Assembly: GCA_030600745.1 (NCBI GenBank)
Contig: JAUVLL010000001.1
Coordinates: 1-33,374 of the forward strand
Direction: 5' to 3'
DNA length: 33,374 bases
Source: Spirochaetaceae bacterium
GTDB lineage: Bacteria > Spirochaetota > Spirochaetia > B11-G9
Shown piece after piece: positions 339-23,598 of the stretch (positions are counted from its first letter, which is position 1; each line of letters opens with the position of its first letter). The position numbers were made by a program, and so were the translations under genes. The notes under the pieces were generated by a model. That model searched no databases. It was not told the origin of the DNA and saw only the letters and a program-made list of their open reading frames with translations.

Positions 339-854
339 ATGAGAAAAACAAGAGAACTGTATGCCGGTGCAAAATACCATGTTACCGCAAAAATTAATCG
401 TGGAGAATTTGCCCTAAAATCCCCTGAAGTAAAAGAATTGTTTCTTCACACTGTACGAAGAGCCAAAAAAAAGTATTCTTTTGAGCTTAGAAGCTTTACC
501 CTCATGGACAACCATATCCACTTCCTTATCAAACCTGGTAAAAACGAGAGTTTATCCAGAATAATGCAATGGATATTAGGTGTGTTTGCAAGAGCTTTTA
601 ACAAATATTTTCATTTAAAGGGTCATGTCTGGTATGATCGTTTCAAAAGTGTTGTTATTAAAAGCTTTGAGCAATTAATAGCCACATTCAGGTATATTTT
701 CAACAATCCTGTTAAAGCAGGGATGGTTGAAAATCCTGAAGAATACGTATATGGATCATTATGGTTTATCCGCCACAAACGATTTGATCTTGTTGAACCT
801 CCAAGACAGTATTTAGCAACTGCATTACCGGAGTTCTTTACAAAAACTGAGTAG
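339..854 (+). CDS. HUH/Y1 tyrosine transposase, IS200/IS605 TnpA-like or REP-associated tyrosine transposase (RAYT)-like
   Basis: 171-aa ORF. It has the HUH motif in 'MDNHIHFLIKP' and the conserved Tyr region 'FRYIFNNPVKAGMV', both typical of the COG1943/PF01797-type Y1 transposases. The size fits this family. Confidence 0.8.
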   Translation: MRKTRELYAGAKYHVTAKINRGEFALKSPEVKELFLHTVRRAKKKYSFELRSFTLMDNHIHFLIKPGKNESLSRIMQWILGVFARAFNKYFHLKGHVWYDRFKSVVIKSFEQLIATFRYIFNNPVKAGMVENPEEYVYGSLWFIRHKRFDLVEPPRQYLATALPEFFTKTE

Positions 855-7000: not shown

Positions 7001-7046
7001 GTAGGCCGTTTGTAAGGGCGCAATTAATCGCGCCCCTACAACGGCC
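7001..7046. repeat. GC-rich REP-like imperfect palindrome (GTAGGCCG...CGCCCCTACAACGGCC)
   Basis: GGCCGTTTGTAAGGGCGC / GCGCCCCTACAACGGCC arms surround the loop AATTAATC, with one indel and one mismatch. The minus strand carries the core GTAGGGGCG. This GC-rich island sits in AT-rich intergenic DNA between the SBP and ARH2 genes and has no U-tract. Confidence 0.6.
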
Positions 7047-14072: not shown

Positions 14073-15320
14073 TTGAAAATAAAAAATATTAATTCTATAA
14101 AACTATTTGTATTAATTGTTATAGGTATCTTAACAATCATTGGACAAGGGCAAGCCCTGCCCCTACAACCGTCTCAAACTGTTCCAACCCTTAATGCCCG
14201 ATCTGCTATTCTTATTGACAGTCTGACAGGTGCTGTACTTTTTGAGAAAAATAGTAATCTTTCGATTCCTCCTGCATCCATGACAAAGCTCATGAGCCTC
14301 TATTTGGTTTACAAAGAGATAGCAGAAGGAAGAGTGTCAAAAGATGAGATAATTACAATAAGCAGGGAAGCAGATTTCAGGTCTTTCCCCCCAGGATCCT
14401 CCTTAATGTTTTTGGAGGAAGGACAGGAAGTATCTATATCAGATCTAATGCTTGGCCTGGCTGTCCCTTCAGGAAACGATGCGGCCATTGCAGCAGCACA
14501 GCGAATTGCAGGATCAGTGGAGCAATTTGTAGAGATGATGAACAGGGAAGTATTGAAGATGGGGTTTAAATCTGTTCATTTTGAAGATGCATCCGGACTC
14601 AGCGATAAAAATATGGTAACTGCAGCAGACTTTGTACAGTTCTGCTCAATTTATATAAACAGCTTTCCGGAGGCTCTGAATGAACTTCATTCGGTAAACT
14701 CTTTTACCTATCCAAAAAAGGGAAACTGGAAAACAAATGGAAATTCCGTTTATGGTCCAATAACCCAGTATAACAGAAATAATCTTCTGACAGCTTATGC
14801 TCCTATCGATGGATTAAAAACAGGATATATCGATGAATCAGGTTACAATGTAGCACTGACTGCCCAAAAAGATGATCGAAGACTGATTGCTGTTCTTCTT
14901 GGAGGTCCCGGAGAAACCAGTGCAGAAGGATCAATGCTCCGGGCGATAGACGGAGTAAATCTTCTGTCTTATGGGTTTTATAGTTTTACCAATATAAAAA
15001 GTGATATACCTGAATTTGCTCTTCCCAGGGTATGGAAGGGGACAAAAACTTATATTGAATTAAAGTTTCCGGAAATTCCAGTCCTTACACTTCCTGTGGA
15101 AAAAGCAGCAGTACTCAAAATCAGAGTGGAGCTTCCGGGAAATATTATTGCACCTATAAAAAAAGGGGATATTCTGGGAGAAATTATCCAGTTTGCAGAC
15201 GATGAAATTATTGATCAATATTCAATTACAGTAGCAGAAGATATTGAAACCAGCGGTTTTTTCAAACGATTCTTTGACAGTATAAGATTGTTTTTCCTGA
15301 AGATCACCGGTGATTTTTGA
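14073..15320 (+). CDS. Serine-type D-Ala-D-Ala carboxypeptidase (PBP5/6-like, peptidase S11)
   Basis: The SxxK 'SMTK', SxN 'SGND' and KTG 'KTGY' motifs occur in the correct order and spacing. A signal peptide is present. TTG start. Confidence 0.9.
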   Translation: MKIKNINSIKLFVLIVIGILTIIGQGQALPLQPSQTVPTLNARSAILIDSLTGAVLFEKNSNLSIPPASMTKLMSLYLVYKEIAEGRVSKDEIITISREADFRSFPPGSSLMFLEEGQEVSISDLMLGLAVPSGNDAAIAAAQRIAGSVEQFVEMMNREVLKMGFKSVHFEDASGLSDKNMVTAADFVQFCSIYINSFPEALNELHSVNSFTYPKKGNWKTNGNSVYGPITQYNRNNLLTAYAPIDGLKTGYIDESGYNVALTAQKDDRRLIAVLLGGPGETSAEGSMLRAIDGVNLLSYGFYSFTNIKSDIPEFALPRVWKGTKTYIELKFPEIPVLTLPVEKAAVLKIRVELPGNIIAPIKKGDILGEIIQFADDEIIDQYSITVAEDIETSGFFKRFFDSIRLFFLKITGDF

Positions 15321-16360: not shown

Positions 16361-16399
16361 GTCCACGTAGGGGCGGGGTTCCCCCACCCCTACGTGGAC
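16361..16399. repeat. REP-like hairpin 2 (13-bp stem GTCCACGTAGGGG/CCCCTACGTGGAC)
   Basis: A perfect 13-bp inverted repeat. The loop CGGGGTTCCCCCA is itself self-complementary. It carries the core GTAGGGGCG at 16367-16375. Confidence 0.7.
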
Positions 16400-20748: not shown

Positions 20749-22260
20749 ATGAAACTGCGTAGAAAACTTAACTTAATTAGTTTTGTCGCATTTATTCTTC
20801 TGGTTATTCTCACTGTTTTATTTCAACTCCCTGTTCAGCAGAAACAGGAGGAACTCTTTATTAATAGTGTTATACACCTTCTTGATGTACTGGTAAATTC
20901 CGAAGAAATCCAACTGGCCAACGAAATTTTCGATAATCGTACCAGAGCTATCAGTTTAAGACTTGAAAGAATGTTACATATGCAGGGAGTTGAGAATGTA
21001 ATTCTTTACAATAAACTGGGAGCAATGATCAATTTTGCTTTAAGTAGTGATAAGGAGGGGGCAGAGATAAAAACAGGCAGTGATTATACTAATGCCGATA
21101 TTTTTACAAAAGAGCTTATCTATCATGATGAAGCCTCTCTTCATTATGAGCATGTTATTAAATTTGGTGATGATATTCTTGGATTTATTGAAATATTCTA
21201 TTCACTTGAAGAGATTAAGAATCAAAGTAGAAAATCCATTTTTGTCTTTGTCGGTTCAGTCTCGGTCGGTCTTATTGTTGTATTACTATTTCTTAATTTA
21301 ATTCTATCAAGGACAGTTGTTTATCCCCTGATTCGACTTATTGATGCTATTAAAATCTATAACATGGAGAGCTCAGAGGATCATAAGAACAAGATCGAGG
21401 TAAGAAGTAAAGACGAGATAGGTGAGTTGACGATGAGTTATAATCATTTATCGGAAAAAATACATAATTACAGCAAAGAGCTTCAGAAAAAGAACTTACA
21501 ACTGGTACGATCACAGAAAATGGAGATGATTGGTACTCTTGCAGGTGGTCTGGCTCATGATTTTAATAATATTCTTGGTGGAATAATTGGTTCAGTATCA
21601 TTACTCAAGCTTTATCAGGCTGATGGTGATTTGTCAGATGAAAAATTATTGAATAATCTGACAATAATTGAAAAATCATCAAAAAGAGCTACCGGGGTGG
21701 TCAGTAAACTAATGAATTTTTCAAGGGAAGAAGTTAATACAAAATTAGTAGTTGATCTGAATGCTATTGTGAATGATGTTATTGAGATCTGCAGGACAAC
21801 AATTGATAAAAGTCTTCATCTTCATCCCGGTCTAATGGCAGGTGATTTGCTTGTCGAAGCTGATCCGGGAGAGATCGAACAGGTTATTCTTAATCTATGT
21901 ATAAATGCTGCTCATTCCATGACAATAATGCGGAGTACTGATGATATAAGAGAGGGGACTCTTGGTATTAAAACTGAGAAAAAACAGGTGGGAGACAATA
22001 ATTACTGTTCTGTAATTATATCAGATACGGGTGTTGGTATAAAACAGGAAAATCTTGTACGTATATTTGATCCATTTTTTTCTACTAAAATTGAGGATGG
22101 TGGAACAGGCTTTGGTCTGGCTATGGCATCATCAATTATTAATCGGCATAAAGGATTTATTGATGTAGACTCCACTTATGGAGATGGAACTACCTTTATT
22201 GTGAATCTACCTGCATATACCGGAAGTAAGGGGGGGGTGTTAATCAGAATTACTGTTTAA
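20749..22260 (+). CDS. Membrane sensor histidine kinase (2 TM, periplasmic loop, HAMP, HisKA, HATPase_c)
   Basis: H-box 'LAGGLAHDFNNILGGI', N-box 'LNLCINAAHSM', G1 'SDTGVGI', G2 'GGTGFGLA', and the HAMP element 'VYPLIRLIDAIK...DEIGELTMSYNHL'. The ATG at 20749 lies 8 nt after AAGAGG. The track start at 20740 is a GTG. Confidence 0.9.
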   Translation: MKLRRKLNLISFVAFILLVILTVLFQLPVQQKQEELFINSVIHLLDVLVNSEEIQLANEIFDNRTRAISLRLERMLHMQGVENVILYNKLGAMINFALSSDKEGAEIKTGSDYTNADIFTKELIYHDEASLHYEHVIKFGDDILGFIEIFYSLEEIKNQSRKSIFVFVGSVSVGLIVVLLFLNLILSRTVVYPLIRLIDAIKIYNMESSEDHKNKIEVRSKDEIGELTMSYNHLSEKIHNYSKELQKKNLQLVRSQKMEMIGTLAGGLAHDFNNILGGIIGSVSLLKLYQADGDLSDEKLLNNLTIIEKSSKRATGVVSKLMNFSREEVNTKLVVDLNAIVNDVIEICRTTIDKSLHLHPGLMAGDLLVEADPGEIEQVILNLCINAAHSMTIMRSTDDIREGTLGIKTEKKQVGDNNYCSVIISDTGVGIKQENLVRIFDPFFSTKIEDGGTGFGLAMASSIINRHKGFIDVDSTYGDGTTFIVNLPAYTGSKGGVLIRITV

Positions 22261-23034
22261 AATATCATCGATTAACCCGATCTTAAATCTGTCAGCTATC
22301 TCTTTGCATTCTTTAATTGAAGCATGTACATCTTCCGGCCTGTGGGCGTCTGAGTTGCAGATTGCTTTTATATTATAATTACCTGCCAGCTCCCAGAAAT
22401 TTAACCAGGGATAAACGGGGCGCTCCCCTTCCGGTGTTGATAGTTCTTTTTTCCGTAGACCGTATCCATTTATTTCCAATGGAATATTAAGCTCTTCCGC
22501 AGCAGTGAGAATGTCAGTGGAACAGGCAATAGCATTATTATCCCATTTCATATATCCGGCCCCAAATCCATCCGGGTGGGCAATAAAACTGAATAGTCCC
22601 GTTCGCATTGTTGCAATCATTATCTTTGCATATTGGGTCAGATGTTTTGGTGTCCTGATATCACTTAGATACCCCCAGTCACCCGGTACCTTTATATAAT
22701 GAATAGCACCAATCAGATAGTCGAATCCTCTTTCTCCCAGCAGCTCATCTCTGTAGAATGCTTCATAAATGGGATCCCATTCACATTCAAGCCCTTTTAA
22801 GAGAATAATGTCATCCGATTCAGCCTCCCTGAATTCTGCTTCATAGGCGTCCAGTTCCGATATGTCCATTCTTACATGAGGCCATCTGTTGTCTGGTAGG
22901 GGGGTGTGGTCCGATATCCCCAGTAGGGGCGACCGGCTGGTCGCCCCTACCTGGGATATCGCAGCATCTACATAATCTTTTACAGTCCCTGTTGCATGTT
23001 TGCAACGCCATGTGTGGGTGTGAAAATTGTTCAT
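22240..23034 (-). CDS. PHP-family phosphoesterase, histidinol-phosphatase (HisJ/HisK)-like
   Basis: 'FHTHTWRCKHA', 'ISDHTPLP', 'GAIHYI' and 'AHPD' are PHP metal-ligand motifs. The start is ATG 23034 or GTG 23040. The 3' end overlaps the kinase gene by 21 nt in convergent orientation. Confidence 0.85.
   Translation of the reverse strand: MNNFHTHTWRCKHATGTVKDYVDAAISQVGATSRSPLLGISDHTPLPDNRWPHVRMDISELDAYEAEFREAESDDIILLKGLECEWDPIYEAFYRDELLGERGFDYLIGAIHYIKVPGDWGYLSDIRTPKHLTQYAKIMIATMRTGLFSFIAHPDGFGAGYMKWDNNAIACSTDILTAAEELNIPLEINGYGLRKKELSTPEGERPVYPWLNFWELAGNYNIKAICNSDAHRPEDVHASIKECKEIADRFKIGLIDDILNSNSD
22913..22960. repeat. 48-bp REP-like imperfect palindrome located in frame inside the PHP-phosphatase CDS
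   Basis: GATATCCCCAGTAGGGGCGACC ggct GGTCGCCCCTACCTGGGATATC has 22-nt arms with 2 mismatches. It carries the core GTAGGGGCG on both strands and encodes 'ISQVGATSRSPLLGIS'. Confidence 0.75.
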
Positions 23035-23259
23035 ATGCACAAGAGGGTATATTATTTCTGCTTCTGTTTCAAGGAATATCAGCAGAGAGGCTTTTGCGAT
23101 GTCTCTGAATTCGGCTTGTTTTTGTGCTGGTCGTAAACAAGTTTACTGCTCGCATATGCATCCTAAGCTTTTTCGCCAGGTATTGGCCTTATATTAGATA
23201 TGAAGTATTTTTTAAGTAGAAAAAGTGATACAGCGCAAAAAGCTCAATGTATGTTTCTG

Positions 23260-23295: not shown

Positions 23296-23598
23296 ATGGA
23301 AGACCGGAAAATAAATGAAGATGCCATGCATGAACTCTCAGGAACTCTTGCAGCATGCAGCGATCCTGTGCTCATTGAAGATTTTCTAAAGAGTCTTCTT
23401 ACAAGTTCAGAATCTATGGGTGTTGCAAACAGATGGGCTCTCGTAAGACTTCTGGATGCGGGTATGAGTCAGCGGAATATAGCAAAGGATCTCGGTTTGA
23501 GTCTGTGTAATATAACCAGAGGATCAAAAGAACTAAAAAAAGAGAATTCACCATTTGCAGCCATGATTGAGGAATTTAAGAAATTAAGTGATAAATAG
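23296..23598 (+). CDS. TrpR-related YerC/YecD-family DNA-binding protein
   Basis: 100 aa. 'ANRWALVRLLDAGMSQRNIAKDLGLSLCNITRGSKELK' matches the TrpR/YerC helix-turn-helix region. Confidence 0.8.
   Translation: MEDRKINEDAMHELSGTLAACSDPVLIEDFLKSLLTSSESMGVANRWALVRLLDAGMSQRNIAKDLGLSLCNITRGSKELKKENSPFAAMIEEFKKLSDK

Follow-up and report, generated by a model that had tools for sequence, protein, structure and literature searches.

Double-foot and in-gene repetitive extragenic palindromic (REP) sequences have been described for the TnpA-Y1 transposases of subclass 2.4 (Quentin, Siguier, Chandler & Fichant 2018; PMC6006769). These REPs are long GC-rich hairpins with 5' GT[AG]G and 3' C[TC]AC ends, with several families per genome and a patchy taxonomic distribution. 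Intragenic GTAG REPs were catalogued by Di Nocera, De Gregorio & Rocco (2013; PMC3733652) inside open reading frames (ORFs) whose frame was unbroken, where loops or linkers were taken to tolerate them; a genome had several families, and some REPs lay within flanking palindromes. Switches of REP class at orthologous loci were reported by Nunvar et al. (2013; PMC3686654) under the terms "orthogroups" and "orthoswitch". According to papers that cite Messing 2012, GTAG is the tetranucleotide recognised by E. coli TnpA-REP. The Rickettsia palindromic elements (RPE; Ogata et al. 2002; Claverie & Ogata 2003, as cited in PMC3733652) are in-frame palindromic repeats that add a surface peptide to genes that remain functional. 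The present analysis concerns a palindrome in the gene of a PHP-family, histidinol-phosphatase-like enzyme of a Spirochaetaceae bacterium, located on a contig of 33,374 nt (JAUVLL010000001.1; the whole contig is called the window below). Most probably, this palindrome is a mobile 28-bp double-foot GTAG REP that lies in frame in the α1-β2 turn of the enzyme, is tolerated there, and comes from a family whose copies have multiplied in the genus and which is linked to REP-associated tyrosine transposases (RAYTs).

The locus has the paired GTAG and CTAC ends of the double-foot REPs, and likewise several REP families per genome with a patchy distribution. The study of Quentin and colleagues stresses Cyanobacteria and Bacteroidetes, whereas the host is here a Spirochaetaceae genus, and the length is nearly fixed, unlike that of their REPs, with exactly 28 bp in 44 of the 59 distinct hairpins of the genome. 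The resemblance of the RAYTs to subclass 2.4 is based on shared features (in-gene REPs and a long, variable HuH-Y spacing) and not on the MCL/HMM classifier of that study. The location inside unbroken ORFs, the number of families and the occasional flanking palindromes are shared with the catalogued GTAG REPs, in which GTAG is, however, an unpaired tail at one end, whereas here it is paired with CTAC. Replication and repair genes were enriched among the catalogued hosts, in contrast to the hosts found here (PHP phosphatase, FdhD, ABC-F, RadA and RAYT genes), and Spirochaetes families of the present type are not listed in that catalogue. Different REP classes at one chromosomal position in related strains are common to this locus and to the class switches of Nunvar et al.; those concerned REPs flanking syntenic RAYTs in Pseudomonas and Stenotrophomonas, whereas here types A, C and E switch inside housekeeping genes (PHP and FdhD).

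A first, sequence-only reading of the window had compared the insertion with those of Rickettsia type. This holds as a likeness of behaviour only; the element is 28 bp long (48 bp with flanks), lies in a Spirochaetaceae genome and is not a member of the RPE family. RPE-1 elements are about 100-150 bp long and specific to Rickettsia. The insertion is real, and the inserted element is an ordinary representative of the double-foot GTAG REPs that go with a RAYT, a class already described; the host lineage is new, and the loop appears to tolerate the insert. Judged from sequence, the turnover of REP types at a constant right junction, a recombinant allele and an excess of copy-specific flanks appear less ordinary and worth a note. 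The picture of REP/RAYT systems is unchanged by the case.

The hairpin core, its family and its flanks

The genome under study, G000, comprises 2.97 Mb in 375 contigs, is 87% complete, and includes the window as contig C77. Contig labels refer to G000 unless another genome is named, and labels beginning with P denote PHP homologue proteins from metagenomes. The palindrome occupies positions 22913-22960, without assigned strand, and reads GATATCCCCAGTAGGGGCGACC-GGCT-GGTCGCCCCTACCTGGGATATC. The geometry proposed in the sequence-only reading was confirmed, namely 48 bp with arms of 22 nt, two adjacent mismatches (CA vs AG) and a loop of 4 nt; a repeat search stretched the pairing to arms of 28 nt with 86% complementarity (22907-22934 and 22939-22966). 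The palindrome consists of a core and locus-specific 10-nt flanks (GATATCCCCA and CTGGGATATC). GTAG REPs were defined as GC-rich hairpins with a stem of 7-20 bp, a short loop and GT[AG]G at the foot. The 28-bp core at 22923-22950 (GTAGGGGCGACC-GGCT-GGTCGCCCCTAC), also without strand, has this arrangement, with a GTAG foot, an 8-bp GC stem, a GGCT centre and a CTAC foot (GTAG + GGGCGACC and GGTCGCCC + CTAC), and belongs to subfamily A of the repeats described below. The G+C content of the core is 75%, vs 38% in the genome, and the window has two occurrences of the 12-mer GTAGGGGCGACC, vs 0.08 expected. The RNA fold of the palindrome stretch had an energy of -45.7 kcal/mol (z = -6.6), and none of 200 shuffled sequences was as stable. 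An Rfam scan of positions 22700-23200 returned only sub-threshold look-alikes of microRNA precursors (21.7 and 19.1 bits vs gathering scores of 100 and 140), which were discounted because any long hairpin yields such matches. A full-text literature search with the stem sequences returned unrelated primer matches alone.

A degenerate 28-bp pattern (GTAGRGRC-N12-GYCYCTAC) was scanned in 41 genomes, with the reversed pattern as a control. G000 had 35 sites and the six other genomes of its genus had 16-64 each, vs 1-7 in four of the 34 relatives outside the genus and none in the remaining 30. The control gave no site in any hairpin-carrying genome and one site each in two hairpin-free genomes. A pairing-aware scan of G000 gave 61 GTAG...CTAC hairpins vs 8 in the reversed genome, so that by both counts the genome has the many dispersed copies that characterise GTAG REPs. 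The 61 reduced to the 59 distinct hairpins mentioned above. Exact and near-exact copies of GTAGGGGCGA[CA]C-GGCC-G[GT]TCGCCCCTAC were present on many contigs, with identical or near-identical cores at C20:5874, C170:4743, C217:267, C149:778, C285:1583, C64:2135 and elsewhere. The copies fall into subfamilies with common feet and with stems that differ by compensated changes, among them A (GTAGGGGCGACCGGCCGGTCGCCCCTAC), B (GTAGGGACAGGTCGCGACCTGTCCCTAC), C (GTAGAGACGCACGGCCGTGCGTCTCTAC) and E (GTAGAGACGCAAGATCTTGCGTCTCTAC); further subfamilies exist.

That the palindrome could be a coding sequence that happens to be self-complementary, or an assembly artefact, is hardly credible given these counts. 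The flank GATATC is itself palindromic, and nothing else speaks for coincidence. Intergenic copies dispersed through the genome have the identical core, and in an alignment of PHP orthologues those from hairpin-free genera, outside the REP-bearing lineages, were without the segment. An artefact is countered by the same or sister alleles in independent assemblies from other samples; P0001, from an independent Joint Genome Institute metagenome assembly, has the same allele as G000.

The sequence-only reading had counted the outer arms within the 48-bp palindrome and noted that they duplicate the coding context ('AIS'/'GIS'). They are palindromic at this locus, but GATATCC and GGGATATC are locus-specific flanks and no part of the repeat family; the upstream ATATCC is also present in alleles that retain 18 nt between the hairpin and GGGATATC. 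A longer REP variant of 46-48 bp (ATATCC-N-AG plus the core) was considered as the source of the outer arms. Across the genus only two such sites were found, both in G000 (the PHP copy and the FdhD copy), and the variant was rejected because the flank in FdhD is native coding sequence (CAT ATC, His-Ile) common to insert-free orthologues. Perfectly complementary, copy-specific flanks were nevertheless in excess among the 59 hairpins: at least 4 bp in 14 (0.29 expected) and at least 6 bp in 9 (0.02 expected). Examples are C344:3120-3171, C328:4730-4777, C285:1575-1618, C348:1542-1583 and, in the window, a family member at 16361-16399 (no strand), in which GTAGGGGCGGGGTTCCCCCACCCCTAC at 16367-16393 has a 6-bp copy-specific palindromic extension, GTCCAC/GTGGAC. 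Such flanks could come from insertion into pre-existing palindromes or from templated outward growth of the hairpin.

The PHP enzyme that carries the insert

The palindrome was confirmed to lie inside the PHP gene. It is wholly within a minus-strand ORF (22240-23040) and is translated as ...DYVDAAISQVGATSRSPLLGISDH..., i.e. ISQVGATSRSPLLGIS, between the motifs FHTHT and SDH, as the earlier reading had it. The start is likely the ATG at 23034, which matches the starts of orthologues and gives a gene at 22240-23034 (minus strand) encoding 264 aa from MNNFHTHT. On the coding strand the core reads GTA GGG GCG ACC AGC CGG TCG CCC CTA C, translated V G A T S R S P L. The palindrome can be read through in two frames, as VGATGRSPL or RRGDRPVAPT, whereas the third contains TAG; in-gene copies are read as VGA... 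or RRG...APT.

The protein matched Pfam PF02811 (E = 1.6e-11) and 2YXO (8.8e-15). Its metal ligands (His, Asp and Glu) and (βα)7 barrel are those of a PHP domain. The best NCBIfam match was PRK07328, with 119.5 bits vs a cut-off of 202, and hisJ_fam scored 51.6 vs 90.2. The protein is thus below the score of a HisJ equivalog, although database sources call its orthologues "histidinol-phosphatase". By family it appears to be an intact histidinol-phosphatase-like enzyme. In an alignment of 36 sequences, all 56 invariant columns were kept, including H5, H7, H13, D42, H43, E83, H112, H153, D229 and H231. Outside the loop, dN/dS was 0.08-0.14 at dS of 0.24-1.6 (dS about 0.2-1.2 among REP-bearing alleles), and the gene had no stops and no frameshifts.

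An AlphaFold2 model from the same alignment had a mean pLDDT of 95.1 and a pTM of 0.92, with a helix at residues 18-29, a loop at 30-36, a strand at 37-43 and a pLDDT of 85 over residues 31-40. The closest structural match in Foldseek was 2YXO, a histidinol phosphatase (TM 0.76). In the model, helix α1 ends, the chain turns and strand β2 begins (first residue) within V29-L37, the stretch encoded by the REP. The surface loop predicted in the sequence-only reading is therefore the α1-β2 turn. In PHP barrels, strand β2 starts (N-terminal end) on the side that faces away from the metal site. The REP-encoded turn would then also be on that side, and because of this position the enzyme may stay functional; it looks intact and appears to be under purifying selection.

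Inactivation of the enzyme had been offered as an alternative, and would make the gene a decaying pseudogene that has kept its frame by chance. This is very improbable. A second PHP paralogue in the genome (C262:644-994) might allow the loss to be tolerated, and the protein is below the HisJ cut-offs, but no sign of inactivation was found: the substitution ratio, the unbroken frame, the 56 invariant residues, the confident model and the structural match to 2YXO, with the insert opposite the metal site, all argue for a functional protein.

A TrpR-family repressor gene (23296-23598, plus strand) lies divergently upstream of the PHP gene. The same arrangement was found in several relatives, where the neighbour matches Pfam Trp_repressor. 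Gene order is conserved for this pair, and the PHP gene does not belong to a his operon.

Alleles at the insertion site

Comparison with orthologues shows that the palindrome was inserted. No extra segment is present in those of four other genera of the family and of five other families, which read ...DY.xxAxxxxxxxLG[MIFA][ST][DE]H at this point, and an alignment to 2YXO, from Thermus, had its gaps exactly at the insert. Insert-free orthologues and most members of the genus read AAVKNNMKILGMSDH, where G000 reads AAISQVGATSRSPLLGISDH. The segment was missing in the same-genus genomes G001, G003 and G006 and in 11 of the 22 closest metagenomic homologues fetched (255 or 256 aa), and forms of 255 aa predominate in the genus. 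These comparisons support an in-frame insertion of a REP-like repeat. Its size had been put at 8-10 residues; in G000, 12 residues (ISQVGATSRSPL) stand in place of the seven residues VKNNMKI of insert-free orthologues, a net gain of 5. The reading frame is preserved because the total change is a multiple of three.

Several alleles with a hairpin were recovered. The site reads GCA-[REP A]-TG CAT GAA TCG CCA ATA TTG GGT ATC AGC in P0002, and P0003 has REP A with one uncompensated G>A. In G002 it is GCG-[REP C]-CG CAT GAA ACG CCA ATA TTG GGG ATA TCC, in P0042 GCG-[REP E]-CC CAT GAA TCG ..., and in G000 and P0001 CAG-[REP A]-TG GGG ATA TCG. Thus a single codon position holds REP types A (P0001-3), C (G002) and E (P0042), and the right junction, CTAC-NN-CATGAA, stays the same. 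The alleles of G002 and P0002 add 11 residues, and the G000 allele is 18 nt shorter. The right-hand flank is 18 nt further from the hairpin in G002, P0002 and P0003 than in G000, whose allele would be a further derivative that lost these 18 nt downstream of the hairpin. This loss would have brought GGGATATC next to the hairpin and so formed the 48-bp palindrome.

Inserts that are not palindromic were found at the same turn in G005, P0004, P0008 and P0017; those of G005, P0008 and P0017 end in LP[LV]LG and are perhaps decayed REPs. P0005 (AAVKNAIHESTILGISDH) was considered as an exact empty site. It has HES(T/P)I in common with the REP alleles, yet differs from them beyond a clean insertion of 28+2 nt, and was rejected. 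A target-site duplication through an 8-nt direct repeat in G002 (GATATCCG) was also rejected, as it would place native-looking codons (HETPILG) within the insert. The P0042 gene (European Nucleotide Archive scaffold, 170-733) differs from its relatives in encoding only 187 aa, with ...GYMASIINRK at the end; a truncated or chimeric gene, or a join made in metagenome assembly, could be the reason.

A gene tree was built with the loop removed, and the groups for topology tests were named after the tree had been seen. G000 grouped with G002 (support 100/99) and P0001 with P0002 (98/93); still, G000 and P0001 have the identical allele with the 18-nt deletion. A clade of G000 and P0001 was rejected by the approximately unbiased (AU) test (p = 0.0014). 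In the 60-column alignment block holding the hairpin, G000 was identical to P0001 at 41 of 42 compared positions and to G002 at 31 of 42, and downstream of this block G000 was identical to G002 at 57-59 of 60 positions. The tree, the AU test and the identity tract together indicate a mosaic allele in G000, acquired by homologous recombination.

The switch between REP types at one codon position might indicate that the site is an active exchange point, at which types A, C and E would be swapped through RAYT cleavage and joining at the GTAG feet, a form of cassette exchange, while the flanks are converted from a template or deleted. The hairpin would here grow outward, through the 18-nt loss and through a switch of a serine codon from AGC to TCG that creates GGGATATC. 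This explanation is unlikely. If true, it would mean that a mobile hairpin keeps rewriting a protein loop while selection holds the frame, and it would also explain why one copy in four has palindromic flanks of its own.

Retention of the hairpin for a benefit to the host rather than as a neutral passenger, as an mRNA structure that would slow translation or shield the transcript, as a DNA site (a REP role of the gyrase or IHF type) or as a useful loop, is improbable. The 28 nt differ at 0-1 positions among G000, P0001, P0002 and P0003 despite a synonymous divergence of about 1, the RNA hairpin is very stable at the energy given above, and the in-gene REPs of FdhD also persist across species. 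However, the conservation is explained equally by recent recombination or by replacement from other genomic copies. The hairpin is moreover dispensable in most members of the genus and in all outgroups, the inserts of G005, P0004, P0008 and P0017 appear decayed and are not palindromic, and the REP types are interchangeable at the site.

RAYT-like genes and other in-frame copies

A search with PF01797 identified Y1 transposase genes in G000. Two RAYT-like genes, C217:26-586 (minus strand) and C121:4702-5253 (plus strand), had as best NCBIfam match REP_Tyr_transpos (NF047646), with 65.7 and 77.2 bits; as for other GTAG REPs, a RAYT is thus found in the same genome. The family has the motifs RLKGYDYSxxGxYFITICT...MPNHIHGI-[hairpin peptide]-...WQRNYYEHIIRN. 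In C217 (...MPNHIHGIVEITDGRGDVYY-RRGDRPVAPT-TT...WQRNYYEQIIRN) the hairpin lies in frame between the HuH and Tyr motifs. A hairpin-coded peptide directly after MPNHIHGI (HuH) was found in 18 of the 20 RAYT homologues examined, from 10 genomes, an in-gene REP as in subclass 2.4. Both open frames are used by these REPs (VGA.../...SPLQ or RRG...APT), and tandem half-repeats occur in G026 (HNGRASLQ x4). A third copy in G000, C344:9796-10265, is frameshifted; its internal REP has collapsed to GTAGGGGTAC, two feet joined, which looks like the footprint of a hairpin deletion that killed the gene.

The RAYT-like family and the hairpin pattern occurred together in 11 of the 41 genomes, among them four lineages outside the genus, and the other 30 had neither. 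In G006 the commonest variant (GTAGGGGCGATTCATGAATCGCCCCTAC; 9 of 28 listed sites, one loop variant included) is the variant in its RAYT gene at C148. The same REP variant was found inside the RAYT gene and 57-69 nt beside it in G017:C593 and G005:C194, and imperfect hairpins lie 270-400 nt upstream of C121. The co-occurrence and the shared variants suggest that the hairpins may be mobilised by the RAYT.

Spread of the REP without the RAYT is clearly unlikely; it would run by replicative template switching at hairpins, by ectopic gene conversion or by homologous exchange among strains, with the RAYT genes as just one more frequent landing site. Recombination does appear to have moved the allele between lineages in a short tract, the excess of flank extensions of 4 bp or more looks templated and driven by structure, the switch of the Ser codon from AGC to TCC/TCG that creates GGGATATC also looks templated, and cognate REPs flank few RAYT loci. 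On the other hand, the hairpin and RAYT families have exactly the same phyletic pattern, and the commonest G006 variant is the one inside its RAYT gene. In addition, both strands of every copy keep GTAG as their foot, the tetranucleotide attributed to E. coli TnpA-REP, this foot being the feature (GTAG and CTAC ends) by which the 59 hairpins had been selected.

Several points weigh against the mobile, RAYT-linked and tolerated REP that is preferred here. The co-occurrence is partly circular, since in G019, and probably in G026, the only hairpins found are those inside RAYT genes. In a REPtron-like arrangement cognate REPs lie within about 1 kb of the tnpA-REP gene; strict GTAG..CTAC hairpins flank only 2 of the 20 RAYT loci examined, many of which are cut by contig ends. 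Both RAYT scores in G000 are below the NCBIfam cut-off of 80 bits, and C217 had no Pfam match at E <= 0.001; the embedded hairpin splits the match and so lowers these scores. The PHP protein, too, scores under the NCBIfam HisJ cut-offs. An exact empty site was not recovered among the alleles compared. Finally, with groups named post hoc, monophyly of all insert-bearing alleles was rejected (AU p = 2e-5), and monophyly of the hairpin-bearing alleles was not rejected (p = 0.07-0.28).

For the preferred explanation we infer the following order of events at the PHP site. The REP would have been mobilised or processed as single-stranded DNA by HUH/Y1 TnpA-REP/RAYT enzymes resembling subclass 2.4, and would have entered the PHP gene at the codons of the α1-β2 turn in the ancestor of a sub-lineage of the genus. 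The reading frame would have survived through the open frame of the hairpin and a total length change that is a multiple of three. The peptide VGATSRSPL would replace the native end of the helix, the turn and the start of the strand, away from the metal site, leaving the enzyme functional. The short tract with the 18-nt deletion would then have passed to the present lineage by homologous recombination.

The insertion had been called a rare case of repeat invasion of a coding region, which is not borne out, as the phenomenon is published and at least four other genes of G000 were found to host copies. The copy in the FdhD gene (C82:2961-3755) lies at C82:3171 and is read as VGANGRSPLL, with the Pfam FdhD-NarQ match spanning it. 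An ABC-F ATPase has a copy at C270:1135 (VGSGRDLALQ), within the first ABC domain, and the copy in RadA, at C272:2841, is read as VETLHATSLH close to the C-terminus. In-frame copies are likewise hosted by two RAYT-like genes of G000. At the FdhD site most members of the genus have a REP at one codon position, the insert-free copy being G004b. The REPs there are simple in G000 and G004a, and internally expanded in G001; in G006 a fresh REP comes after a left half that has decayed.

The PHP gene offers a clean, well-delimited case of a tiny mobile hairpin that would have entered a housekeeping enzyme without destroying its function. Its allelic series (insert-free forms, three REP types, the derivative with the 18-nt deletion, decayed remnants and a mosaic) could serve in studies of REP turnover. 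For annotation, the peptides VGATGRSPL, RRGDRPVAPT and VETHGRASL in this genus should be recognised as REP-encoded, and RAYT genes split by a REP can be expected to score under family cut-offs.

Two other Y1 transposase genes were set aside. The window has a Y1/HUH transposase-like gene at 339-854 (plus strand), which scored 88.1 bits as an NCBIfam REP-associated tyrosine transposase (cut-off 80). It was not accepted as the cognate enzyme, as no GTAG hairpin was found inside it or within 700 nt and its motifs differ (NHIHFLI and YIFNNPVKAG); it is probably a non-cognate paralogue of a different, REP-less subclass. The gene at C188:1483-1935 is an ordinary IS200-type TnpA with unrelated flanking hairpins. 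Two further repeats were found in the window, both without assigned strand: a 28-bp family member with a degenerate foot at 7012-7039 (GTAAGGGCGCAATTAATCGCGCCCCTAC), and a partial or decayed copy at 14145-14166 (GGGCAAGCCCTGCCCCTAC) with a CCCCTAC foot at its end.

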